Assembly (NCBI GenBank): GCA_964423285.1
Contig: CAYREI010000005.1
Span: 1-39,979 of the forward strand
Direction: 5' to 3'
Length of the DNA stretch: 39,979 nucleotides
From: an uncultured Pseudomonadales bacterium
GTDB taxonomy: Bacteria > Patescibacteriota > Microgenomatia > UBA1400 > PJMF01
Below, piece by piece: positions 1 through 39,444 of the stretch. Under the pieces are notes generated by a model. The model worked only from the letters and a program-made list of their open reading frames with translations. It was not told where the DNA came from and did no database searches. Position numbers and translations under genes: made by a program. Positions within the stretch are counted from its first letter, which is position 1. The number at the start of each line of letters is the position of its first letter.

Positions 1-2
1 TT

Positions 3-275
3 CTTAAAGCTATTGGAGCTAAAGATAAAGATATTTTAAGTCAATTTCTTATAGAATCACTTGTTCTCACTATTTTAGGGGGGGTAATTGGAATATTGCT
101 TGGCATGGGAGCAGCATTCATAGCATCTTCATTTATGAGTATTCCATTTATTATTAAGCTGTCTTCAATCTTAATATCCTTTATAGTTTCAGCTAGTATA
201 GGTATACTTTTTGGCTATTATCCAGCTAAAAAGGCTGCTAAGTTAAATCCCATTGATGCGTTAAGGTACGAGTAA
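3..275 (+). CDS. ABC transporter permease, FtsX/MacB family, C-terminal fragment (5' end outside window)
   Basis: Frame 3 is open from the window edge to TAA 273-275. My translation, ...LKAIGAKDKDILSQFLIESLVLTILGGVIGILLGMGAAF...GILFGYYPAKKAAKLNPIDALRYE, gives the typical last TM helices and YPAxKAAxLxPIxALRYE tail of FtsX-domain permeases. It is absent from the ORF track because there is no in-window start. Confidence 0.8.
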   Translation, partial: LKAIGAKDKDILSQFLIESLVLTILGGVIGILLGMGAAFIASSFMSIPFIIKLSSILISFIVSASIGILFGYYPAKKAAKLNPIDALRYE

Positions 276-314
276 ATTTAAATATTTATTTAGAAAACCT
301 CTTTACTAAAAAAG

Positions 315-415
315 AAATAGGTTCCAACACCGTCCACTAGTCCCTGCAAATAGATCAAAATATATCTTTTATTATCAAATAATATTTTTTAGATTGGGTA
401 TAATATCTTTTATAT
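315..415 (+). repeat. Cassette repeat copy R1 (core 315-348, then a divergent AT-rich module with TATAAT 399-404)
   Basis: AAATAGGTTCCAACACCGTCCACTAGTCCCTGCA matches copy R3 at 33 of 34 positions. Homology is lost after CTGCA. TATAAT lies 11 nt before ATG 416. Confidence 0.85.
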
Positions 416-943
416 ATGGGAAAAATATATTTTGTTCGTCATGGAGAGAGCGAGGCAAATGTAAGGCGTACATTTGCAGGTCAGAGAAATAATTCACCAT
501 TAACTGAATTAGGTCGGCAACAAGCTGAACAAGCTGCGTTAGACTTGTTGAATCATAATTTTGAAATTGATCGAATCATTACCTCGCCACTAGCAAGATC
601 CCGCGAAACTGCCGAGATAATTGCTAAACAAGCAAAATTGAGCGTTAGGGTAGAAATCGACGAGAGAATAGCAGAGTACGACATGGGAGAGCTAACGGGA
701 ACTGCTTATCACAAGATCACTTCTGAGGAGTTAGCTGCTTCTGTGGGAGCAGAGAATCCGCATGTATTTCAAGATCGCGTGCATAATTTGCTAAATGAAC
801 TAGCGCAAAAAGAAGATAATGTATTGATAGTCAGTCATGCTGGCGTGGGTAGAATAATTGAAGTAACAAAGAAAAACCTAGACCCCAACAGTTTTTATGA
901 TCTCGCTCCATTACCAAATGCAAAAATTATTGTGATTAAGTGA
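416..943 (+). CDS. Histidine phosphatase family protein (phosphoglycerate-mutase-like)
   Basis: N-terminal YFVRHGESEAN (RHG catalytic motif), a later SHAGVGR second-His motif, and 175 aa typical of the family. It sits inside the first repeat-bounded cassette. Confidence 0.85.
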   Translation: MGKIYFVRHGESEANVRRTFAGQRNNSPLTELGRQQAEQAALDLLNHNFEIDRIITSPLARSRETAEIIAKQAKLSVRVEIDERIAEYDMGELTGTAYHKITSEELAASVGAENPHVFQDRVHNLLNELAQKEDNVLIVSHAGVGRIIEVTKKNLDPNSFYDLAPLPNAKIIVIK

Positions 944-957
944 GTTAAACTTTGAGC

Positions 958-1016
958 AATAGGTTTCAACATCGTCTACGCACCTCTGCAGCGATATATT
1001 TTGATATAATGAAATT
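958..1016 (+). repeat. Cassette repeat copy R2 (short form)
   Basis: AATAGGTTTCAACATCGTCTACGCACCTCTGCAGCGATATATTTTGATATAAT. The core is recognisable with ACTAGT replaced by ACGCAC. It ends in an extended -10, TGATATAAT (1002-1010), 6 nt before GTG 1017. Confidence 0.8.
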
Positions 1017-1382
1017 GTGTTTAGACTTAATTCTGAATGGTATTTACCCAAACTAGCCCCTGACATTGCCGTTGATAAAAATGGTGAGATATTTGAGTTA
1101 TTGCGCAATCTCCAAATCTTCGCTTATTTTATGGTTAGGTATGCATCCAGTCATATTCCTAAAGATCATAAATCACACGACTCATATACGGGTAAAGACC
1201 TAATTAATCCAAAGACTAATAAACATTTTACAATTGATTACTTAGTTAATAATAAAACTTTAGTGTTAAGTCCTGAGAATTTAGATAAATTAAAAAATGG
1301 GTCTACAGCTGGAATAGAAGGCAGAGAATACATTGTTGCTTTAGTTACAATTGCTTTATATAAAGAATTGTATTTAAACTGA
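1017..1382 (+). CDS. Hypothetical protein (121 aa), cassette 2
   Basis: ORF with a GTG start 6 nt after an extended -10, which looks leaderless. No domain recognised. The stop TGA abuts the next repeat copy. Confidence 0.5.
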   Translation: MFRLNSEWYLPKLAPDIAVDKNGEIFELLRNLQIFAYFMVRYASSHIPKDHKSHDSYTGKDLINPKTNKHFTIDYLVNNKTLVLSPENLDKLKNGSTAGIEGREYIVALVTIALYKELYLN

Positions 1383-1466
1383 AATAGGTTCCAACATCGT
1401 CCACTAGTCCCTGCAGCGATATAGTTTGATATATATTGATAAAACTCAATTAAATTTGTAGAATGT
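1382..1466 (+). repeat. Cassette repeat copy R3 (full core plus promoter)
   Basis: AAATAGGTTCCAACATCGTCCACTAGTCCCTGCAGCGATATAGTTTGATATATATTGATA, followed by TTGATA (1436-1441), a 17-nt spacer and TAGAAT (1459-1464). Confidence 0.9.
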
Positions 1467-2066
1467 ATGAGTTATAAATTTTCTAAAGTTAGAAATGAAT
1501 TTATGTCAGGTATAAAAGTTGGACATGAGGCAGGTCAAATTCCTCCAGAAGATGCCTGGACCTTACGGAAACTAGGTGTTGTTCCTGACAGCAATGGAGA
1601 TTATAAAGAATTTTTGTTACGAATTTATTTTTGGAAACAACAATATTTACATGACTTAGCACAGAATGATAGTGATATTAGTCAGTCAGAAATTGATAAT
1701 TTGCTGCTAACGCTATATAGATTGCCAGAATTAGCTTCAGTATTCATTCAATCAATGAATAATCAAGAAAAAATTCCATTTTATAGAAATGGACAAGATC
1801 CTAGAATTTTCAATGGAATATATTTCGGAAGAGGGGATGGGGATCATGAACTAACTTTGTCTACTCGTGCCTTTAATGCACTTTTGAGAGGCAAGCTCGT
1901 GGTAGAAGTGAATGGTTTTATGCATGCCGAAGATTTAGCAAAACTATCTCTAATAGAATTAGAGTCTGCTAGAACTATCGGTCCAAAAACAATTGAAGTG
2001 TTAGAGTCTTTTTTATCAGACTTACAGAATAAACTTGGATTAGATGTAAATGAGTTAGATAAATAG
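1467..2066 (+). CDS. RNA polymerase alpha-subunit C-terminal-domain-like (helix-hairpin-helix) protein, cassette 3
   Basis: The C-terminal LTLSTRAFNALLRGKL...AEDLAKLSLIELESARTIGPKTIEVLESFLSDLQNKLGL follows the RpoA alpha-CTD pattern (LSxRxxNxL...DL...EL...GxKxxxEi...L..GL). The start is uncertain: ATG 1467 lies only 2 nt after the predicted -10, and the next in-frame ATG is 1503. The stop TAG (2064-2066) is part of repeat R4. Confidence 0.6.
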   Translation: MSYKFSKVRNEFMSGIKVGHEAGQIPPEDAWTLRKLGVVPDSNGDYKEFLLRIYFWKQQYLHDLAQNDSDISQSEIDNLLLTLYRLPELASVFIQSMNNQEKIPFYRNGQDPRIFNGIYFGRGDGDHELTLSTRAFNALLRGKLVVEVNGFMHAEDLAKLSLIELESARTIGPKTIEVLESFLSDLQNKLGLDVNELDK

Positions 2067-2184
2067 GTTCGAACATCGTCCACTAGTCCCTGCAGTGATA
2101 TAGTTTGATATATATTGATACTTTTTCAACTAAGTTTGGTATAATATTTAATTATTAACTCTATCTGAAGTTGGAGAAAGTTGT
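2061..2184 (+). repeat. Cassette repeat copy R4 (core plus promoter plus 5'UTR)
   Basis: 58 of 60 positions identical to R3 over the core, by hand count. Homology with R7 continues through the promoter, 5'UTR and SD. Confidence 0.9.
2115..2145 (+). promoter_or_regulatory. Sigma70-like promoter inside R4
   Basis: TTGATA (2115-2120), a 19-nt spacer ending in TGG, then TATAAT (2140-2145), forming an extended -10 TGgTATAAT. SD GGAG (2173-2176) lies 8 nt before ATG 2185. Confidence 0.55.
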
Positions 2185-2475
2185 ATGAGTAAAAAAGAGA
2201 CACTTAAATTAAATCCAAATCCAAATCAATACACTCCTGAAGAAGAAGCTTATTTGAGAAGAATGGCAAAAATACTTCCGCCACGCTATGGAATAGGTAA
2301 AGATAAGAGTAATAATAACATCGTGCTTTTTTATTTGAGTGAGATTGTAAAAACATATCCCGAGAATGTTACCGAAGAAGAGATTCTTGAATACATACAG
2401 GAACATCAAGCAAAACTGATAGAATCAGGTGATGACTTCATGTATGGTGAGAGTACTCCACCCCCAGGCTATTAA
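2185..2475 (+). CDS. Hypothetical protein (96 aa), cassette 4
   Basis: ORF preceded by the repeat-borne promoter and a GGAG SD. No domain recognised. Confidence 0.6.
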   Translation: MSKKETLKLNPNPNQYTPEEEAYLRRMAKILPPRYGIGKDKSNNNIVLFYLSEIVKTYPENVTEEEILEYIQEHQAKLIESGDDFMYGESTPPPGY

Positions 2476-2518
2476 CGCCTTTAAACAGTATTTGTCAGGT
2501 TATCGCATCCCACAATCC

Positions 2519-2544
2519 AGGTTCCAACACCGTCCACTAGTCCA
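2519..2544 (+). repeat. Cassette repeat copy R5 (truncated: left core only)
   Basis: AGGTTCCAACACCGTCCACTAGTCC is identical to the R1 core variant (ACACCG). Homology stops after ACTAGTCC, and there is no GATATA or promoter module. Confidence 0.8.
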
Positions 2545-2648
2545 CTCGTGCCATATTTCAAATAAATAAAAAAGTTTCAAATCAGTCACTATTTTAAAAT
2601 GATCCTTACTCATCATTTAAATTTAAGTCTAGAAGATTGGTCAAACTA

Positions 2649-2819
2649 TTATTTTAGCTTATCTTTTTTCCTGATTTTTTGAATTATTTTTCTATTTTTT
2701 GGTAAAATCAACATCTTTTCTAGTTTTCCCAGTAATATTATGCAGATAGTCTTATTATCATAGACCCCATCATCTCCTTCATCTTCTGGCGGTTTTGAAT
2801 GTTTAATTTCATTGTTCAT
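2649..2819 (-). CDS. Hypothetical small protein (56 aa), the only reverse-oriented ORF in the array
   Basis: Own translation: MNNEIKHSKPPEDEGDDGVYDNKTICIILLGKLEKMLILPKNRKIIQKIRKKDKLK, then TAA. It falls below the 60-aa cutoff of the ORF track. The minus strand has TGTATAAT about 10 nt upstream of the ATG. No SD was seen. Confidence 0.35.
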   Translation of the reverse strand: MNNEIKHSKPPEDEGDDGVYDNKTICIILLGKLEKMLILPKNRKIIQKIRKKDKLK

Positions 2820-2847
2820 TTAATTGTATTATACAAAATAAGTGGAG

Positions 2848-2957
2848 TAGGTTCTAACTACCACCCATTAATCCTTGTAATGATATAGTTTGATATATAT
2901 TGATAGAATTCTGTTATAATATAATACATCTTTTACAAATTAAAAAATTGGAGATTT
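2848..2957 (+). repeat. Cassette repeat copy R6 (decayed core, intact GATATA/promoter module)
   Basis: TAGGTTCTAAC, then a diverged middle, then GATATAGTTTGATATATATTGATA identical to R3, R4 and R7. TATAAT motifs lie at about 2915-2925, and SD GGAG precedes ATG 2958. Confidence 0.85.
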
Positions 2958-3200
2958 ATGACAAATAAAGAAGTATATAAATTAGCAGAGGACCCAAATT
3001 ATCAAGCTTTTGAAAAGATGGAAAAAAGTGGTAAATTTGATGGTTACAAACCAGGTACTTGGATTGCAATTTTAAATGGGCTTGTATTTGCCTCAAATAT
3101 TGATAAAAATAAGTTGTCCAAAATAATATCTAGAGAGACAGATGAGACAGATGAGTCTTGTTTTATTGAACAAGTTAACATTGAGAAAAAAGATATATAA
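2958..3200 (+). CDS. Hypothetical protein (80 aa), cassette 6 first ORF
   Basis: ORF with SD (TTGGAGATTT ATG) behind the repeat promoter. No confident domain call. Confidence 0.55.
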   Translation: MTNKEVYKLAEDPNYQAFEKMEKSGKFDGYKPGTWIAILNGLVFASNIDKNKLSKIISRETDETDESCFIEQVNIEKKDI

Positions 3201-3249
3201 ATGGACTGAGCTTATTTGGGAATGGATAGCGTGAGCTAAATAAATTAAT

Positions 3250-3537
3250 TTGAAAGAACCTATGTTTGAAGAAAACGAATACCCTGTTAAAAAAGAAAGA
3301 GTAGTGAGGAGACCTCTCAATGAAGGGGAAATAGAAGCAGAGATTGAGCGTCTTTCTAATGGGGTATTTAAGTCTATATCAGATGGTCCATGGGTTGAGT
3401 CTGTAGATGAGGACAGAGAAGTAACTACCTTTTCTTACCGAGGAATTAATTTGCCTGGATATACTTTTGAACTTTCATGGAAAGAAGTCCAAGGTTCTTC
3501 TTTAGAAAAGAATGAGGAAATGTCTCCATTACCATAA
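3250..3537 (+). CDS. Hypothetical protein (95 aa), cassette 6 second ORF
   Basis: ORF with a TTG start at 3250 and an alternative ATG at 3262. It has no repeat copy upstream. The last codons (SPLP, stop) lie in sequence shared with the end of ORF 3670-3864. Confidence 0.5.
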   Translation: MKEPMFEENEYPVKKERVVRRPLNEGEIEAEIERLSNGVFKSISDGPWVESVDEDREVTTFSYRGINLPGYTFELSWKEVQGSSLEKNEEMSPLP

Positions 3538-3547
3538 TAAAAAACGA

Positions 3548-3669
3548 AAATAGGTTCTAACATCGTCCACTAGTCCCTGTAGCGATATAGTTTGATATAT
3601 ATTGACACTTTTATTGTCTAGTTTGGTAGAATATATTAATTACTAATTCTATTTAGAATTGGAGGAAGA
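3548..3669 (+). repeat. Cassette repeat copy R7 (core plus promoter plus 5'UTR)
   Basis: 57 of 60 positions identical to R3 over the core, by hand count. Upstream homology with R8 extends back to 3524 (CTCCATTACCATAATAA). Confidence 0.9.
3602..3632 (+). promoter_or_regulatory. Sigma70-like promoter inside R7
   Basis: TTGACA (3602-3607), a 19-nt spacer ending in TGG, then TAGAAT (3627-3632). SD GGAGG lies just before ATG 3670. Confidence 0.55.
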
Positions 3670-3864
3670 ATGAGTTTTAAATCCCCAGAGGGTTATAAAA
3701 GCGATAAAAGTATTGAAGAGACGGGAGGTCCTTTCTTTTGGAAAGGAAAAATTATTAAGTTTTTAAAAAATTGTGGTGTTGATGAAAAAGTTATTGTAGC
3801 TATTTTATGCCCAAAAGAAGATTCAAAAGAGAAAAAAGATGGACCTTGTCCACCATTACCATAA
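3670..3864 (+). CDS. Hypothetical protein (64 aa), cassette 7
   Basis: ORF with a strong SD behind the R7 promoter. It ends PPLP, stop, within sequence shared with ORF 3250-3537. Confidence 0.55.
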   Translation: MSFKSPEGYKSDKSIEETGGPFFWKGKIIKFLKNCGVDEKVIVAILCPKEDSKEKKDGPCPPLP

Positions 3865-3873
3865 TAAGAAGCG

Positions 3874-3989
3874 AAAATAGGTTTCAACACCATTCGCTTA
3901 TTTTATTTGATATAAGTTTTAAATTTTCTGGTATACTTCTTTTTTCGTTTATTTATTAAATTTAAACATTTTTTATTAAAGGAGTTGAT
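3874..3989 (+). repeat. Cassette repeat copy R8 (degenerate)
   Basis: AAAATAGGTTTCAACACC, then a shortened middle, then TTTGATATAAG and TGGTATACT (extended -10-like). SD AGGAG precedes GTG 3990. Confidence 0.65.
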
Positions 3990-4229
3990 GTGTCAGGAAA
4001 AGAATCTGAAGCTAATCCATTTCAAGTCAACAATGTAGAGATAGCTGAGGGTAGGGAAGCTAATTGTGCGATATTGAGTTTTTTTCAACTTTTATTAAAA
4101 TCGGAGAATGAAAGCAACTTAATGAAAATTGTTTGGAATAATCATTTTGTTTTAAAAGAAAATGGCACTAAAGACAAAACTGTGCTCGATTTCCAAGGTA
4201 ATACTGTCGCAACCATTCACATTCTGTAG
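3990..4229 (+). CDS. Hypothetical protein (79 aa), cassette 8
   Basis: ORF with a GTG start and AAGGAG SD 6 nt upstream. No domain recognised. Confidence 0.5.
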   Translation: MSGKESEANPFQVNNVEIAEGREANCAILSFFQLLLKSENESNLMKIVWNNHFVLKENGTKDKTVLDFQGNTVATIHIL

Positions 4230-4301
4230 TTTTCAATTTCCAATGATTGGTTAAATTTAACGATGATAAATAGGAAGAAGAATAGATTTAGACCCTCTTC
4301 A

Positions 4302-4799
4302 CTATTGAATTTGTTTTAAACCCTCTTTTATACCAAGCTGTAGCAACTCTTTAAAAATCATGGGGTCTAGGGTGTAAACAATCACAAACGAGGTGACAAA
4401 AATGATGATCGCTAGCCATTTCGTATAGCGCCCACGAGTATTAGTAAAAAGAATTAAACTTAGAGCTGCCATAACGGCGGGGCCAACCACTTTAATATCT
4501 CCCAAAGGTATTGCGTAACCACCGATTGTTTCTTTAGATGTGTCTAAAAATTTTGCTAGGTCAAAACTTATGTTAGCAACAATTAAAAAAATCTCAGCGA
4601 TTAAAACAGCTAGTAGCCCCCAAGATGCCCACTTAGTTGATCTTCCTTCGGTTCGATATACTTCATAGATAACAGTTGGAAATAAGAAAATGATAGTGAT
4701 TAAAGGATTTGATTGAAGAATGCCAAAGACAATTCCTAAAAAAGCGACAATGGTTAAAACTGTACAGATTGCGGTAGCGTTTTGGTAAGGTTTAGCCAT
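4302..4799 (-). CDS. Integral membrane protein (165 aa, about 5 TM helices)
   Basis: Hydrophobic segments run throughout. The minus strand has an extended -10, TGCTACAAT (4818-4810), 10 nt upstream of the ATG. It lies downstream of the HK/RR pair on the same strand. Confidence 0.7.
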   Translation of the reverse strand: MAKPYQNATAICTVLTIVAFLGIVFGILQSNPLITIIFLFPTVIYEVYRTEGRSTKWASWGLLAVLIAEIFLIVANISFDLAKFLDTSKETIGGYAIPLGDIKVVGPAVMAALSLILFTNTRGRYTKWLAIIIFVTSFVIVYTLDPMIFKELLQLGIKEGLKQIQ

Positions 4800-4893
4800 T
4801 TATTTTTTCATTGTAGCATTAATAATGGTGATATGAGACGAAATAATAAGTAGAATGCTTGGTTGAAGGGCGCGCAGGGGCGAACTAATTTAG

Positions 4894-6000
4894 CTAAATA
4901 GGAATAGCAACAGTGAATGTTGTTCCTTTTTTAATTGCGCTATTACAACTAATAGTTCCTTTAAAAATATTTTCAATAGTATTTTTAGTTATTGTTAATC
5001 CTAACCCAATGCCCATATTCGGATTTTTAGTTGTGTACATTGGTTCAAAGATTTTTTGTTTATTTTTAGTAGAAATTCCTGCTCCAAAATCTTGTATTTT
5101 TAATACTAATTTTTTTTGATTTTTACTAAAATTAATAATAATTTGTCGATTCTGTTTTCTCTCAATCTGATAGTAAGAATCTATGGAATTTGATATTAAA
5201 TTTATTATAACTTGAGCAAATTTATTAGCTGGTCCTAATATTAGACTAGAATCAAGCTCTCGGATTATTATGTCAACATGATTTATATCTGCTTTTGGAG
5301 ACATAATTCGGATCGCTTGTTTAATATATTTAGCTGGAGAAAATTTTATTATTTGATTTTGATTGCTTAATTGTAGCTGGGTAGAATTGATGAATTTTCC
5401 AATGAATTGGATATTTTCAAAAGCAAGCTTAATTTTTTTTAATTTTGATTTCGACAAATCCCTATTATTGTAAAGCTGCTCTAGGTTTAAAGAGGCACTA
5501 GTTAATGGATTTTTAATATCGTGAAAGATTTCAATCGCAGATCGACCAACTTCAACAAATTGCTGCCACTGCATCATTTTTTCTATTTGAGCTAATCGAA
5601 TTTGCCTAGTTTGTTTTTTAACTCTTTTTTTAAGTAGTCTTTTTTCTTTTTCTAATAATTTTTCTGATAGTATTACTTTTTCTAATACTTTATGAAGTTT
5701 GCGGTTATATAGCCAGCTAACTAGAAAAATAACAAATATAGATATGGAGACTGTGATTGCATTAAATATATCTTCATTTTCAACCCTCCAACTATTGTCT
5801 ACAGGTAGCAAGGCTTGATGTTGAAGATGAGTCAAACTAATTAAAAATAAGCTGGTAAATAAAGTAATAATTAAAGCTGTTCCAACTAAATATAAGCCTC
5901 CTGTTAATAAGACATGGAAAATTTGTCTTTTTTTATAATCTACAACTTTTTTAACTATCGAGGAACCTGATTCGCTAAAAAAATTATTTATTTTATTCAT
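4894..6000 (-). CDS. Sensor histidine kinase
   Basis: Two N-terminal TM segments, an H-box (EIFHDIKNPLTSA), an N-box (INLISNSIDS), G-boxes (QDFGAGI, GIGLGL). The stop lies 4 nt from the response-regulator gene. Confidence 0.9.
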   Translation of the reverse strand: MNKINNFFSESGSSIVKKVVDYKKRQIFHVLLTGGLYLVGTALIITLFTSLFLISLTHLQHQALLPVDNSWRVENEDIFNAITVSISIFVIFLVSWLYNRKLHKVLEKVILSEKLLEKEKRLLKKRVKKQTRQIRLAQIEKMMQWQQFVEVGRSAIEIFHDIKNPLTSASLNLEQLYNNRDLSKSKLKKIKLAFENIQFIGKFINSTQLQLSNQNQIIKFSPAKYIKQAIRIMSPKADINHVDIIIRELDSSLILGPANKFAQVIINLISNSIDSYYQIERKQNRQIIINFSKNQKKLVLKIQDFGAGISTKNKQKIFEPMYTTKNPNMGIGLGLTITKNTIENIFKGTISCNSAIKKGTTFTVAIPI

Positions 6001-6003
6001 TTT

Positions 6004-6690
6004 TTAACTAGCTTTATCAGATTTGTCGTCGCAAAGTTTATATCCTATCCCATGAACTGTTTTGATAATATTATTATCAGAGATATTTTTAATTTTTTTT
6101 CTGATGTTAAAAATATGAACATCGATTGCATTACTATTAAAATTTTTTTCACCTTCCCACACATGTTCTAATAGTCTTAATCTAGAGATAGGAGTATTTT
6201 TATAATGCGCTAAATATTGAAGTATTAGATATTCTTTTTTGGAAAATTTAAGAATTTTACCTTCATAAAATATATTTTTAGTATTCAAATTTATTGATAA
6301 TTTTCCGATAGTTATAATATTATTTTTAATATTTAGGCTCCTTCTTAACAACGATCTAATCCTTGCTTTAAGTTCAATTAGATTAAAAGGTTTAATAACA
6401 TAATCATCGGCGCCTGTATTCAAAAGACTAACTTTACTATTAATCGAATCTTCCCCAGTGAGAATTAATATTGGCGTTGTTAAACCTTCTCTTCTTAATT
6501 CTTCACAGACTTCTGCTCCATTTATATCGGGCAATTTAAGATCTAGTAATATTAGGTCGTATTCATTAGTTATTGCTTCGTAAATACCTTTTTTTCCAGT
6601 TAAGGCTATATCTGTAACGTAGCCTTGAGATAAGCAGTTTTGCAAAGATTTAGCTAGAGATTTATTATCTTCAATTACTAAAATTTTCAT
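6004..6690 (-). CDS. OmpR/PhoB-family response regulator
   Basis: Receiver domain (MKILVIEDN..., DLILLDLKLPD, KPF) plus a C-terminal winged-helix Trans_reg_C region (LSKKEYLILQYL..., VHGIGYKL). Confidence 0.95.
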   Translation of the reverse strand: MKILVIEDNKSLAKSLQNCLSQGYVTDIALTGKKGIYEAITNEYDLILLDLKLPDINGAEVCEELRREGLTTPILILTGEDSINSKVSLLNTGADDYVIKPFNLIELKARIRSLLRRSLNIKNNIITIGKLSINLNTKNIFYEGKILKFSKKEYLILQYLAHYKNTPISRLRLLEHVWEGEKNFNSNAIDVHIFNIRKKIKNISDNNIIKTVHGIGYKLCDDKSDKAS

Positions 6691-20358: not shown

Positions 20359-21504
20359 ATGAGTATTTCTCTTAATGAAAGACAGTTGCTTTTGGTAGCA
20401 ATTTTAGCTGTGGAGGGGATCGGGCGGAAGAGTCTAAGAAGAGTTTTGCAACAACTTAAAGAGTTAAATGTTTCACTAGAAGAGTTTTGGCAACAAAAAC
20501 CTGCTCAAATTTGGGAACTATGTGGTTTAAATGGTAAACAACAGCAAGGTTTGAGAAATTTTAAAAAGCGTTTTACACCCAAAAACTATTTCGGGTGGTT
20601 GAATAAACAGAATATCACTGTCATTACTAACGAAGATAAAAGGTACCCTAAATTATTAAAAAGAATTGATGATAAGCCATTAGTATTATATATAAAAGGG
20701 AGTATTTCGGGTGTTAATCAACGACCGATTGCAGTAGTAGGCACTAGAAAAATTTCGGGTTATGGTCGGACAGTTTGCGAGCAATTAGTGTCAGAGCTAG
20801 TGAGTTCTCAGGCTACTATTGTGTCCGGATTTATGCACGGAGTTGATACTTGGGCACACCGGCAAGCGATAAATCAAGGTGGCTATACAGTTGGGGTATT
20901 AGGTTATGGTTTTGATCATCTTTACCCAGTTAGTAATAGAAAATTTTTTGATGAAATGCTAGCCCAAGGTAATGGTTTTATTACCGAGTATCCACCTTGG
21001 GTTGGAGCTCATCGAGGAAATTTTCCAGAGAGAAACAGAATTGTGGCTGGAATGTCATTGGCTACTCTAGTAATTGAAGCTGGCAAAAAAAGTGGGAGCC
21101 ATATTACCGCAACCTTTGCTGGAGAGTATGGTCGAGGAATATGTGCAGTCCCTGGTCCGATTACCAATCCATACAGCGAAGGAACTAAATGGTTAATAAA
21201 TCAAGGAGCAAGATTAGTGACTTCAGCCAGGGAAGTGCTAGAAGAAGCCGGGGTCTATGGGGCTGATTGGAGTAAATTGATTCCAGATAAAACTAATATT
21301 AGTCAACCAAGTTTTAGCGACGAACTTCAACAGAAGGTTTATCAACAACTCTTAAATCAACCACTCCCGACCGATGAACTAGCCAAACAACTTGAGCTAT
21401 CAATTCCAAATTTGAATACAGCTTTATCATTATTAGAATTAGAGGGGTATTTACACAAACAAAATAACACTTGGTTTGTTAAAAATGCTGATAGTGTACA
21501 ATAA
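20359..21504 (+). CDS. dprA: DNA-processing protein DprA
   Basis: N-terminal SAM-like region, a Rossmann core (VVGTRKISGYG..., SGFMHGVDTWAH, RNRIVAG) and a C-terminal winged-helix. Confidence 0.9.
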   Translation: MSISLNERQLLLVAILAVEGIGRKSLRRVLQQLKELNVSLEEFWQQKPAQIWELCGLNGKQQQGLRNFKKRFTPKNYFGWLNKQNITVITNEDKRYPKLLKRIDDKPLVLYIKGSISGVNQRPIAVVGTRKISGYGRTVCEQLVSELVSSQATIVSGFMHGVDTWAHRQAINQGGYTVGVLGYGFDHLYPVSNRKFFDEMLAQGNGFITEYPPWVGAHRGNFPERNRIVAGMSLATLVIEAGKKSGSHITATFAGEYGRGICAVPGPITNPYSEGTKWLINQGARLVTSAREVLEEAGVYGADWSKLIPDKTNISQPSFSDELQQKVYQQLLNQPLPTDELAKQLELSIPNLNTALSLLELEGYLHKQNNTWFVKNADSVQ

Positions 21505-39008: not shown

Positions 39009-39070
39009 GTTTGCAGTTTATCATTATTGATAAGTTTTTGCATTTATTTTAAGAAAATAGTCCTATAATA

Positions 39071-39099
39071 TTGACATTTTGGATATATTTTGATATATT
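39071..39099 (+). promoter_or_regulatory. Candidate sigma70 promoter for 39184-39444
   Basis: TTGACA (39071-39076), a 17-nt spacer, then TATATT (39094-39099). It overlaps three 10-bp-phased GATATA-like boxes (39083-39108). Confidence 0.4.
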
Positions 39100-39108
39100 T
39101 TGAATATT

Positions 39109-39171
39109 GTCTCTCTGGAAGGGGGATCGTTACGACCACTGCGGTTGTAACTGATCCAAATTTAAAGAGAC
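39109..39171 (+). promoter_or_regulatory. Structured 5' leader (nested hairpin)
   Basis: Outer stem: GTCTCT (39109-39114) pairs with AGAGAC (39166-39171). Inner stem: GGATCGTTAC (39124-39133) pairs with GTAAC-T-GATCC (39147-39157), extended by ACC/GGT. SD AAGGAGGAG follows at 39172-39180. Confidence 0.4.
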
Positions 39172-39183
39172 AAGGAGGAGACG

Positions 39184-39444
39184 ATGGGGAAAAATTTTTT
39201 CTCTGCAGTGTGGGTGGTAATAGCAATTGCTGTGATAATCCTTATAGGAATAGGAGTCGCGGCAGATAGTGACCCCAAGCAGGGGTTGGCAAATGAATGC
39301 CTACAAGGGCTTCAAGAAGCTTGCGTTTATTGGCAAGCTCTTGAAGAATTAAAAATGGTCGAGGCAGTGGTTGCTGATGCAAAAAGCAGCTACGAAGCTG
39401 CCATTGCACCAACACCGCCAACCCAATCAATCCTGGATTCATGA
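39184..39444 (+). CDS. Small membrane-anchored protein (86 aa)
   Basis: Strong SD, an N-terminal TM helix (FFSAVWVVIAIAVIILIGIGVAA) and a terminator immediately downstream. Confidence 0.6.
   Translation: MGKNFFSAVWVVIAIAVIILIGIGVAADSDPKQGLANECLQGLQEACVYWQALEELKMVEAVVADAKSSYEAAIAPTPPTQSILDS

Follow-up and report, generated by a model that had tools for sequence, protein, structure and literature searches.

Sedentary chromosomal integrons, of which the Vibrio cholerae repeat (VCR) arrays of Vibrio are an example, hold their cassettes at attC sites, with an intI gene adjacent, a common promoter (Pc) and attI as the site of entry. In Streptococcus, integrase-less elements flanked by att sites accrete beside integrative and conjugative elements. 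Other modules exploit Xer recombination: the integrative mobile elements exploiting Xer (IMEX), which form arrays at dif, and the pdif modules of Acinetobacter plasmids. The T4-type phages carry mobile regulatory cassettes, the promoter-early stem-loops (PeSL), reportedly described by Arbiol et al. in 2010. The tycheposon islands of Prochlorococcus are anchored at tRNA genes, grow by serial site-specific integration and contain scattered partial tRNAs (bioRxiv 10.1101/2020.12.28.424599). The locus considered here is an array of small genes, divided by direct repeats, at the start of contig CAYREI010000005.1 from an uncultured member of the Patescibacteria; 39,979 nt of this contig, called the window below, were analysed. 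The reading favoured, at a probability of about 0.55, is a tRNA-anchored accretion array of integrase-less, promoter-carrying cassettes joined at att-like sites. As each junction seems to carry the 3' end of tRNA-Trp in diverged form, the array resembles an integron in its role as a site of gene capture, with no integrase in view, yet it is not an integron proper.

Eight co-oriented copies of the repeat (R1 to R8) lie between positions 315 and 3903 of the window, as located by a repeat finder and by alignment; the AGG that opens their core stands at 319, 961, 1386, 2065, 2519, 2849, 3552 and 3879. A preliminary description of this DNA, written from the letters and their open reading frames (ORFs), had listed eight same-strand copies at starts that agree with these, and its hand-counted identities (58/60 for R3 against R4, 57/60 for R3 against R7) are correct. 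The repeat finder returned six 65-nt copies and a 25-nt core family of seven. Allowing up to three mismatches, the 25-nt core, AGGTTCCAACATCGTCCACTAGTCC, is matched five times where chance would give 0.00; the 22-nt second half, GATATAGTTTGATATATATTGA, is found four times in the array, again against an expectation of 0.00. Both halves are intact in R3, R4 and R7 only: R6 joins a degraded first half to an intact second one, in R1 and R5 the second half is missing, in R2 the first is degraded and the second shortened, and R8 is degraded throughout. The order of the array recurs in independent assemblies, its left part in loci L006-L009 (loci on other contigs are cited by such numbers) and its right part in L067-L069. 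No copy of the core occurs in the other 35.7 kb of the window (4.3-40 kb), and each of five reference genomes with the exact core has it at a single locus; the genome-wide dispersal envisaged in the preliminary description as the contrary outcome is not seen.

The repeat is composite, consisting of arm A, a short CTGCAGY segment and an optional head B with a promoter. Arm A, the G+C-richer first half, covers some 35 nt (AAAAT-AGGTTCNAACAYCGTCYACTAGTCC-CTGCA); over 79 distinct instances from all loci it is conserved from -4 to +30, with sharp edges, and varies at positions 7, 12 and 17, whereas G3, C6, C10, G14, C24 and C25 of the core do not vary. On the 3' side of CTGCA(G) stands head B1 (YGATATAGTTTGATAT..., with a -35 box and, downstream, an extended -10), head B2 (an intrinsic terminator, then TGATAnAAT) or unique sequence. 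The unit first put at 60-125 nt is a real repeat, but what is conserved is instead the ~35-nt arm A with CTGCAGY and a head of ~16-25 nt. Promoters belonging to the cassettes themselves, also proposed there, find support: positions 1-4300 hold 10 extended -10 elements against 2.5 +/- 1.5 in shuffled sequence, with extended -10 elements after R2, R4, R6, R7 and R8 and -35/-10 pairs after R1 and R3. The junctions have no hairpin potential on either strand (RNA and DNA folds against shuffles, z -0.6 to +1.1; DNA folds, +0.2 to +1.1), the repeat finder reported no inverted repeat within the unit, and no Rfam family matches the repeat at gathering thresholds, relaxed searches giving chance-level hits only.

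Some further properties of the motif may be recorded here. At the A + B1 junction (1382-1432 in the window, and other full junctions) TAG stops close all three forward frames (AA-TAG-G, CAC-TAG-T, ATA-TAG-T). The motif was considered as coding sequence, its reverse strand reading (A/G)TG-TTN-GAA-CCT ('M(L/F)EP...') and the continuation in a type-B subfamily (described below) being weakly peptide-like with mostly early stops; this was ruled out by the variable positions 7, 12 and 17, which have a period of 5, not 3. A 390-aa ORF that enters the motif in L014 most likely uses a later start, MRFFNKK. Elsewhere in the window, at 39060-39185, an AT-rich promoter region resembles head B1 in part (GATATATTTTGATATATTTTGA, 2 mismatches); after it, and upstream of a small ORF at 39185, comes a G+C-rich stretch of ~70 nt that contains inverted repeats. 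This region has neither arm A nor an Rfam match.

Loci that share sequence on one side of the repeat part company at it. The permease gene at the left edge of the window is common to L030, L018 and L038 at 91-93% identity. The window, L030 and L018 diverge immediately after ...AGTCCCTRCA, and the permease-side homology of L030, L038 and L018 stops right after ...ACTAGTCCCT(G/A)CA, with three unrelated sequences beyond. Of the ends of inter-locus homology, 23% fall within 10 nt of the motif, against 3% at random. Arm A brackets the four-gene ABC (ATP-binding cassette) operon in L018 and L038, and the array lies ahead of that operon in L039 and L041. Strings of cassette clusters are mosaic (C1-C5-C6-C8-C11-C13... 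in the window, C30-C13-C31-C1 in L041); L014 and L023 share cassettes in reversed order; segment 5, which follows the ABC operon in the window, lies in L025 and L041 between other cassettes upstream of it. Cassettes recurrent in the arrays of different organisms include a two-gene cassette of 86 + 86 aa (toxin-antitoxin-like), a 244-aa gene and a 103-aa gene. The preliminary description had held tandem duplication inadequate to explain conserved boundaries around unrelated, self-promoted cassettes, and this stands; as to its proviso that relatives might prove to carry identical cassettes, their content differs exactly at the repeat boundaries.

Arm A belongs with the gene upstream of it. A co-oriented ORF ends just ahead of arm A in 53 of 68 type-A copies; in 27 of these 53 no more than 4 nt separate the stop codon from the core, and the motif's own TAG is used in 13. 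The stop codon of cassette gene 3 in the window is the TAG inside R4. In L020 and L002, homology of the toxin-antitoxin-like two-gene cassette continues through arm A, and the left extension of R5 moves along with arm A in L014, L016, L018/L038 and L021. The cargo, over 87 neighbouring ORFs, consists chiefly of NUDIX, GNAT, methyltransferase, deaminase and HAD enzymes, with Fic, a metallopeptidase and IS3 transposases besides. Toxin-antitoxin-like pairs, peptidases and many orphans are also among the cargo seen.

The arrays occupy a fixed locus. Histidine-kinase homologues led to syntenic loci in which the window's core gene order (Wzy-like, def, fmt, L28, M50, metallo-beta-lactamase, response regulator, kinase) is followed by a variable island; the kinase and regulator also flank the island in L002/L046, L029/L044 and L042. 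A co-oriented tRNA-Trp lies immediately upstream of the first cassette in L029, L044 and L020, a tRNA-Ala is upstream of the first cassette in L038, and a tRNA-Ser is upstream of the single motif in L013. As the window itself lacks a tRNA, its anchor is taken from synteny with L029, and the window would represent the distal part of a tRNA-anchored island.

The repeat itself resembles a tRNA gene at its end. Taken together, arm A and head B2 are colinear with the tRNA-Trp 3' end and its terminator and promoter, as seen at junctions in L002, L012, L014 and L016. Three of these four arrays agree with the tRNA region at 43-46 of 55 nt (78-84%) to the right of CTGCA, terminator and -10 box included; L016 agrees at 36 of 55. 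To the left, 12-13 of 20 are identical, arm A having a 5-nt insertion and substitutions; the matches here are the T-loop-like AGGTTC.A and the terminal CC(C)TGCA, with 7-8 nt matching at the junction. The tRNA-Trp gene, too, has CTGCAGY at its extreme 3' end: the junction ...GTCC-CTGCAGC-GATATAG may be compared with the L029 tRNA-Trp end, ...GGGC-CTGCAGC-AGAAAG. Arm A copies of different arrays are identical to one another at 22-25 of 25 positions. True partial tRNA-Trp ends do occur, inside the L020 and L038 arrays, directly 5' of CTGCAG and B1. On these alignments, arm A appears to be a diverged pseudo-copy of the tRNA-Trp 3' end and not a copy of the resident tRNA. The preliminary description had not recognised the repeat as any known class of element. 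The tRNA-derived arm and the tRNA start place the array among tRNA-anchored integrative islands, and it is hence not of a wholly unknown class.

L013, from a genome of 49% GC, provides the simplest case. One cassette of ~0.7 kb, with a 116-aa gene, has a tRNA-Ser (...CTCCGCCA) on one side and an exact arm A on the other. In place of CTGCA, the letters after this arm A are CCGCCA, that tRNA-Ser's own end; therefore, the nucleotides 3' of arm A follow the identity of the local tRNA. The flanking identity between this cassette and the tRNA-Ser is only 6 nt.

Arm A is nearly unchanged in 59 loci, including metagenome-assembled genomes (MAGs) labelled Woesebacteria, Paceibacterota and other Patescibacteria. 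This conservation in distant Patescibacteria lay beyond the view of the preliminary description, as did the derivation from tRNA-Trp and the tRNA start of the relatives' arrays. A one-genome-per-species scan found the exact core in 5 reference MAGs, one each labelled Woesebacteria, Paceibacterota and Patescibacteria and two labelled Gammaproteobacteria, a label that could not be verified; 32 further metagenome contigs (Antarctic lake, marine, sediment and groundwater) also have it. Copies are co-oriented in 41 of 41 loci with at least two, at a median spacing of 775 nt, and a mismatch-tolerant scan revealed arrays nearly everywhere (7 copies in 8.5 kb in L014, 7 in 5.8 kb in L039, 5 in L030). 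The context in the window is chromosomal, with MreB, ThyA, YchF and DprA. Phage or plasmid origin was considered and rejected, as the motif had 0 matches in viral contigs (searched with two patterns), phage records and plasmid records. In the literature that could be searched, no paper was found with the core sequence and none describing such arrays in the candidate phyla radiation (CPR).

In the favoured reading, a cassette unit runs, 5' to 3', from a head (B1, promoter only, or B2, terminator and promoter) through one or a few genes to arm A, which abuts or overlaps the stop of the gene upstream; neighbouring units meet at CTGCAGY. Site-specific recombination would bring cassettes in, take them out and reorder them, with arm A bound by a recombinase whose strand exchange takes place in or beside CTGCAGY, the partner site being either the tRNA 3' end, in a role like that of the integron attI or a chromosomal attB, or any existing junction. 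A circle closing at CTGCAGY would restore the same junction; therefore, a cassette could be excised or inserted at any pair of junctions, much as happens between attC sites in integrons. Since no recombinase was found in or beside the arrays examined, it would be supplied in trans. The tRNA anchoring, the co-orientation, the conserved arm of apparent tRNA origin, the short shared segment and the single insertion flanked by 6 nt bear the stamp of site-specific integration at a tRNA 3' end with accretion afterwards, and the junction is therefore read as att-like (arm A, CTGCAGY, head). What the data show is the architecture of the repeat, its conservation among lineages, the single locus in each genome, the tRNA anchor in relatives, the colinearity of arm A and head B2 with the tRNA-Trp 3' region and the strain differences located at junctions; the site-specific nature of the exchange, the point of strand exchange and activity at the present day are inferred. 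A broader proposal is that the Patescibacteria possess a cassette-capture system of their own, a functional analogue of the integron with tRNA-derived arms as tags, a tRNA as entry site, a recombinase encoded elsewhere and a pool shared across distant lineages; this is put forward tentatively, its chances standing somewhat short of even.

Several observations weigh against site-specific capture at these junctions. The first is the missing enzyme. Neither a tyrosine nor a serine recombinase was found in the Pfam-annotated complete islands of L044/L053 (tRNA-Trp to aminotransferase) and L046 (aminotransferase to BacA), so the preliminary description's remark that no recombinase was in view holds for complete islands in relatives too. 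Phage_integrase has no match in these islands or in 10 ORFs of the window, the upstream end of the array lying outside the window; six-frame phmmer searches of ~560 kb with XerD and gamma-delta resolvase returned nothing, in a search without a positive control from which divergent integrases could escape. The window has no tRNA that could be found. No empty site for the L013 insertion was recovered, all strains carrying the cassette and the nearest relatives not being syntenic. To the right of the presumed crossover stand B1, B2 or unique sequence and no single conserved arm, which is unusual for the two-armed core of a tyrosine recombinase; and the module of arm A plus head reaches ~90 nt, enough for RecA-dependent exchange. 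Left cassette boundaries are fuzzy, with 17-49 nt non-homologous in two of three cases examined, and metagenome assemblies can mis-join at repeats.

It is the length of these A-plus-head modules, 60-90 nt at 78-97% identity, that makes RecA-dependent exchange a serious rival. Cassettes would then be swapped by homologous recombination at portable regulatory junctions, in the manner of T4 PeSL and perhaps after natural transformation, and the module would be kept since it is needed for exchangeability. The promoters and terminators in the heads, with a regulatory role of their own, suit this account, as do the fuzzy left boundaries, the failure to find a recombinase near any array, and the DprA encoded at 20359-21504 of the window. 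However, the 6 nt that the L013 cassette has in common with tRNA-Ser are too few for RecA, and the switch after arm A from CTGCA to CCGCCA follows the local tRNA; moreover, homologous recombination imposes no specific sequence, whereas the 25-nt core is near-invariant across very different lineages (with the labels Woesebacteria, Paceibacterota, Patescibacteria and Gammaproteobacteria) and in a 49%-GC genome, and anchoring at a tRNA 3' end is a hallmark of site-specific integration. Exchange by RecA is judged clearly less probable than the favoured reading; it may also act alongside site-specific exchange. A different history would make the junctions fossil scars: inactive att remnants of larger, integrase-bearing elements serially integrated at tRNA-Trp and since deleted, with variation produced by ordinary deletion and recombination. 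Many copies are decayed (R2, R6 and R8; many with 3-7 mismatches), and partial tRNA-Trp ends are scattered in the arrays, as partial tRNAs are in the tRNA-anchored islands of Prochlorococcus (10.1101/2020.12.28.424599). The cassettes, though, are uniformly small, self-promoted and packed tightly against arm A, and close strains (91-95% identity) differ in cassette content and order. Furthermore, arm A copies are closer across distant genomes (22-25/25) than to the local tRNA (12-13/20), which argues for spread with a mobile unit and not for local scarring; the fossil account is rated quite improbable.

Arm A might instead work in RNA or transcription, as a 3' untranslated signal (a Rho or RNA-binding-protein site, for example) or as an operator by which the island genes are co-regulated. 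It is C-rich and unstructured, lies directly 3' of a co-oriented stop in most type-A copies, and precedes an extended -10 by 40-50 nt in types A and B alike. Such a role would leave the tRNA 3'-end homology and the tRNA anchoring unexplained; the motif is confined to one locus per genome instead of being spread over a regulon, it is inverted relative to the genes in type B, and it matches nothing in Rfam; this explanation is rated improbable. Least probable is that the locus is a classical integron or that its repeats belong to some other known class, for example repetitive extragenic palindromes (REP), miniature inverted-repeat transposable elements (MITE), CRISPR or Xer/dif modules. Co-oriented repeats between small unrelated genes, with NUDIX, GNAT and toxin-antitoxin-like cargo, are indeed what chromosomal integrons offer, but here hairpin potential is absent on both strands, no integrase is adjacent and the cassettes have their own promoters. 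A repeat neither dispersed nor palindromic does not fit REP or MITE, and spacing and coding content exclude CRISPR. A dif or terminus site was likewise rejected: a dif-type dyad is absent, and the sign of the GC skew does not change over the array, either in the window or in L046.

The features of the array and its right flank are collected in Table 1. The cargo named in the preliminary description (a histidine phosphatase, an RpoA C-terminal-domain-like protein and orphans) is borne out by Pfam, the second by a weak match; the seven array ORFs other than genes 1 and 3 have no significant Pfam match, one of the seven giving a sub-threshold one (E=0.024). PADLOC gave no defence matches for the window cargo.

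Table 1. Features at positions 1-6690 of the window
Feature	Position	Strand	Remarks
ABC (FtsX-type) permease 3' end, last gene of four-gene ABC cassette	1..275	+	ORF 96-275; homologues in L018, L030, L038 at 91-93%
R1: arm A + CTGCA, then unique promoter region, not head B	315..348	+	L030/L018 homology ends right after R1
Cassette gene 1: histidine phosphatase	416..943	+	Pfam His_Phos_1 E=5e-35; exact protein on 4 independent contigs
R2: degraded arm A (6 mismatches), CTGCAG, shortened head with TGATATAAT	957..1010	+	
Cassette gene 2: orphan, 121 aa	1017..1382	+	Called in L006-L009
R3: full junction; arm A including CTGCA 1382-1415, head B 1416-1441 (GCGATATAGTTTGATATATATTGATA)	1382..1441	+	
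R3 promoter TTGATA-17-TAGAAT	1436-1464	+	
Cassette gene 3: 199 aa, weakly resembling the RpoA C-terminal domain (helix-hairpin-helix)	1467..2066	+	Pfam E=0.011, NCBIfam E=0.0034, under family cut-offs
R4: full junction of arm A, CTGCAG and head B, with the extended -10 TGGTATAAT at 2137	2061..2120	+	
Cassette gene 4: orphan, 96 aa, C-terminus ...PPPGY	2185..2475	+	Homologous 3' end in L021
R5: gene-4-family 3'-end remnant (...GGTTATCGCATCCCACAATCC) fused to intact 25-nt core; no CTGCA or head B	2495..2543	+	
Cassette segment 5; possible 56-aa ORF 2649-2819 on minus strand	2643..2858	.	78% to L025, L041
R6: head B intact, arm A degraded by a 1-nt insertion and several substitutions; TGTTATAAT at 2912	2845..2905	+	
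Cassette 6: two orphan genes, 80 aa (2958-3200) and 95 aa (3250-3537)	2958..3537	+	Both called in L068
R7: full junction of arm A, CTGTAG and head B, with TGGTAGAAT at 3624	3548..3607	+	
Cassette gene 8: orphan, 64 aa, GGAGG ribosome-binding site	3670..3864	+	
R8: decayed arm A (AGGTTTCAACACCATTCGCTTATTT); TGGTATACT at 3929	3875..3903	+	
Cassette gene 9: orphan, 79 aa, last cassette ahead of conserved flank	3990..4229	+	
Conserved right flank: 165-aa membrane protein, histidine kinase 4894-6000, OmpR-type response regulator 6004-6690	4302..6690	-	

Members of the gene-4 family in relatives end in ...PPGYYIP* (compare 2461-2518 of the window), and part of this end accompanies arm A into other arrays (L014, L016, L018/L038 and L021). 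Cassette genes 7 and 8 are 83% identical over 46 nt (3526-3571 and 3853-3898), a stretch that includes their last codons (...PLP*). In relatives L029, L042, L044 and L046 the kinase is separated from the island by a class I/II aminotransferase; in the window (4302-6000) the 165-aa membrane protein takes its place, and the kinase ORF has 368 aa against 437-473 aa in homologues. A gene of 422-464 aa adjoins tRNA-Trp in divergent orientation and marks the same site in a Woesebacteria MAG. It was considered as an intI-like recombinase and set aside, being one of the core proteins of the CPR, with >900 homologues (55-73% identity); as an integrase it was further discounted by its presence beside tRNA-Trp in a 48%-GC lineage without any motif.

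The mobile-element genes seen in the islands are those of IS3 (rve), an IS200-type Y1 and GIY-YIG only. IS3-family insertion sequences (helix-turn-helix and rve ORFs) lie inside islands at L029:2404-3487, L038:8758-9823 and L044:17319-18402; in the L044 species, strain variants L045, L053, L054 and L057 differ in every cassette distal to the IS3 copy. An IS200/IS605-type element with a 126-aa Y1 transposase (Pfam E=3.5e-26) occupies L046:18400-18990 on the minus strand, at the upstream end of the island. It has hairpin ends, CCCCGGCCGTCAGGCCGTGGG and CCCCGACCGTAAGGTCGTGGG, and beyond the left one stands GGGACTAGT, which agrees over 9 nt with the reverse complement of arm A, perhaps by chance. 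This transposase was considered as mobiliser and rejected, as it is found in one lineage only and belongs to an ordinary insertion sequence with hairpin ends; the GGGACTAGT match is left unexplained.

The AT-rich arrays also contain G+C-rich segments of ~100-150 nt, at L020:3890-4075, L020:7440-7640 and L038:1790-1905. A terminator hairpin comes before them, a partial tRNA-Trp 3' end (GAA(A/G)TCCTT...GCCTGCAG) stands at their close, and head B1 follows directly. Those of L020_b and L038 have TGCCGCCAAGTGC...GCACCTGGGTAATGCAT in common. They have no Rfam match; a small structured RNA is one possibility, a non-autonomous element another.

The type-B subfamily of the motif (...GTCTACTAGTCC-ACCC) is found in L004, L005/L034, L010, L011, L022, L024, L026, L027, L031 and L032. 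Its geometry is exactly that of a tRNA 3' half ending in N73-CCA, and it resembles the tRNA-Ala end GAGTCCACCA; it has a conserved pyrimidine-rich left flank and is inverted relative to the neighbouring genes. Two of the MAGs that carry it bear the Gammaproteobacteria label, which could not be verified.

The bacteria of the CPR, or Patescibacteria, have genomes of ~1 Mb with few recognised mobile elements, and their routes of gene flux are largely unknown. If the favoured reading is right, a fixed hot spot at a tRNA, in which single-gene, self-expressed cassettes are stored and reshuffled, would rank among the main sources of their strain-level variation. As arm A is nearly invariant, it can serve as a sequence tag, in silico or as a primer for the polymerase chain reaction (as has been done with attC), by which to harvest accessory genes of uncultured bacteria from metagenomes; it could also be the bait with which to identify the recombinase. 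The repeats further explain assembly breaks at the locus: several contigs (L009, L012, L024 and L039) start or stop within arm A, so that the repeat is seen to break short-read assemblies, and the arrays are probably under-represented in MAGs.

How the locus stands to the known systems can now be set out. Modules bounded by short recombination sites, without an integrase and moved by a recombinase encoded elsewhere, are common to IMEX and pdif and to the proposal made here; but dif is a site of 28-31 nt with two inverted arms, situated at the terminus, whereas the present site has no dyad, occurs in direct copies only and is tRNA-anchored. REP and MITE differ in another way, the copies here lying at one locus per genome, all co-oriented, and not being palindromic. 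The PeSL offer a closer likeness: there too, small orphan genes of a hyperplastic region have short conserved repeats with promoters at their sides, and modular shuffling has been proposed. They are, however, borne by phages, form stem-loops, rely on homologous recombination and have no tRNA arm; the arrays here are chromosomal and tRNA-anchored, and A + B1 forms no stem-loop.

With Vibrio VCR-type integrons the arrays have much in common: one array per genome; similar, co-oriented sites at the 3' end of small cassettes, often over the stop codon; orphan, toxin-antitoxin-like, GNAT and NUDIX cargo; and cassettes shared and reordered between arrays. They lack the folded attC palindrome (R''-L''/L'-R') and an adjacent intI, and their cassettes are not promoterless, having promoters of their own instead of Pc; the site is conserved in sequence, not in structure, and entry would be at a tRNA 3' end, not at attI.

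The nearest kin are the tRNA-anchored islands of the tycheposon kind. Shared with them are the fixed chromosomal site beside a co-oriented tRNA, the newer insertions that push older ones inward, and the strain-variable cargo. Partial tRNA-Trp 3' ends recur inside the arrays as well, but the direct repeats themselves agree with the tRNA-Trp end at only 12-13 of 20 positions, with a 5-nt insertion. The co-oriented start at a tRNA 3' end is found in relatives L029, L044, L020, L013 and L038, and for the window through synteny with L029; an integrase encoded by the element is not found. Unlike those islands, the units here are of 0.3-1.5 kb, mostly single self-promoted genes and none with an integrase; junctions are dense, up to 7-8 in 4-8 kb; and the repeat does not copy the resident tRNA but has the form of a separate pseudo-tRNA-Trp arm, marked by its 5-nt insertion and near-identical across the Woesebacteria, Paceibacterota and other Patescibacteria labels. 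The array would function like a chromosomal integron, with similar cargo, and what sets it apart from the known islands is its single-gene, self-promoted, integrase-less units and dense junctions, together with a pseudo-tRNA arm common to several lineages.

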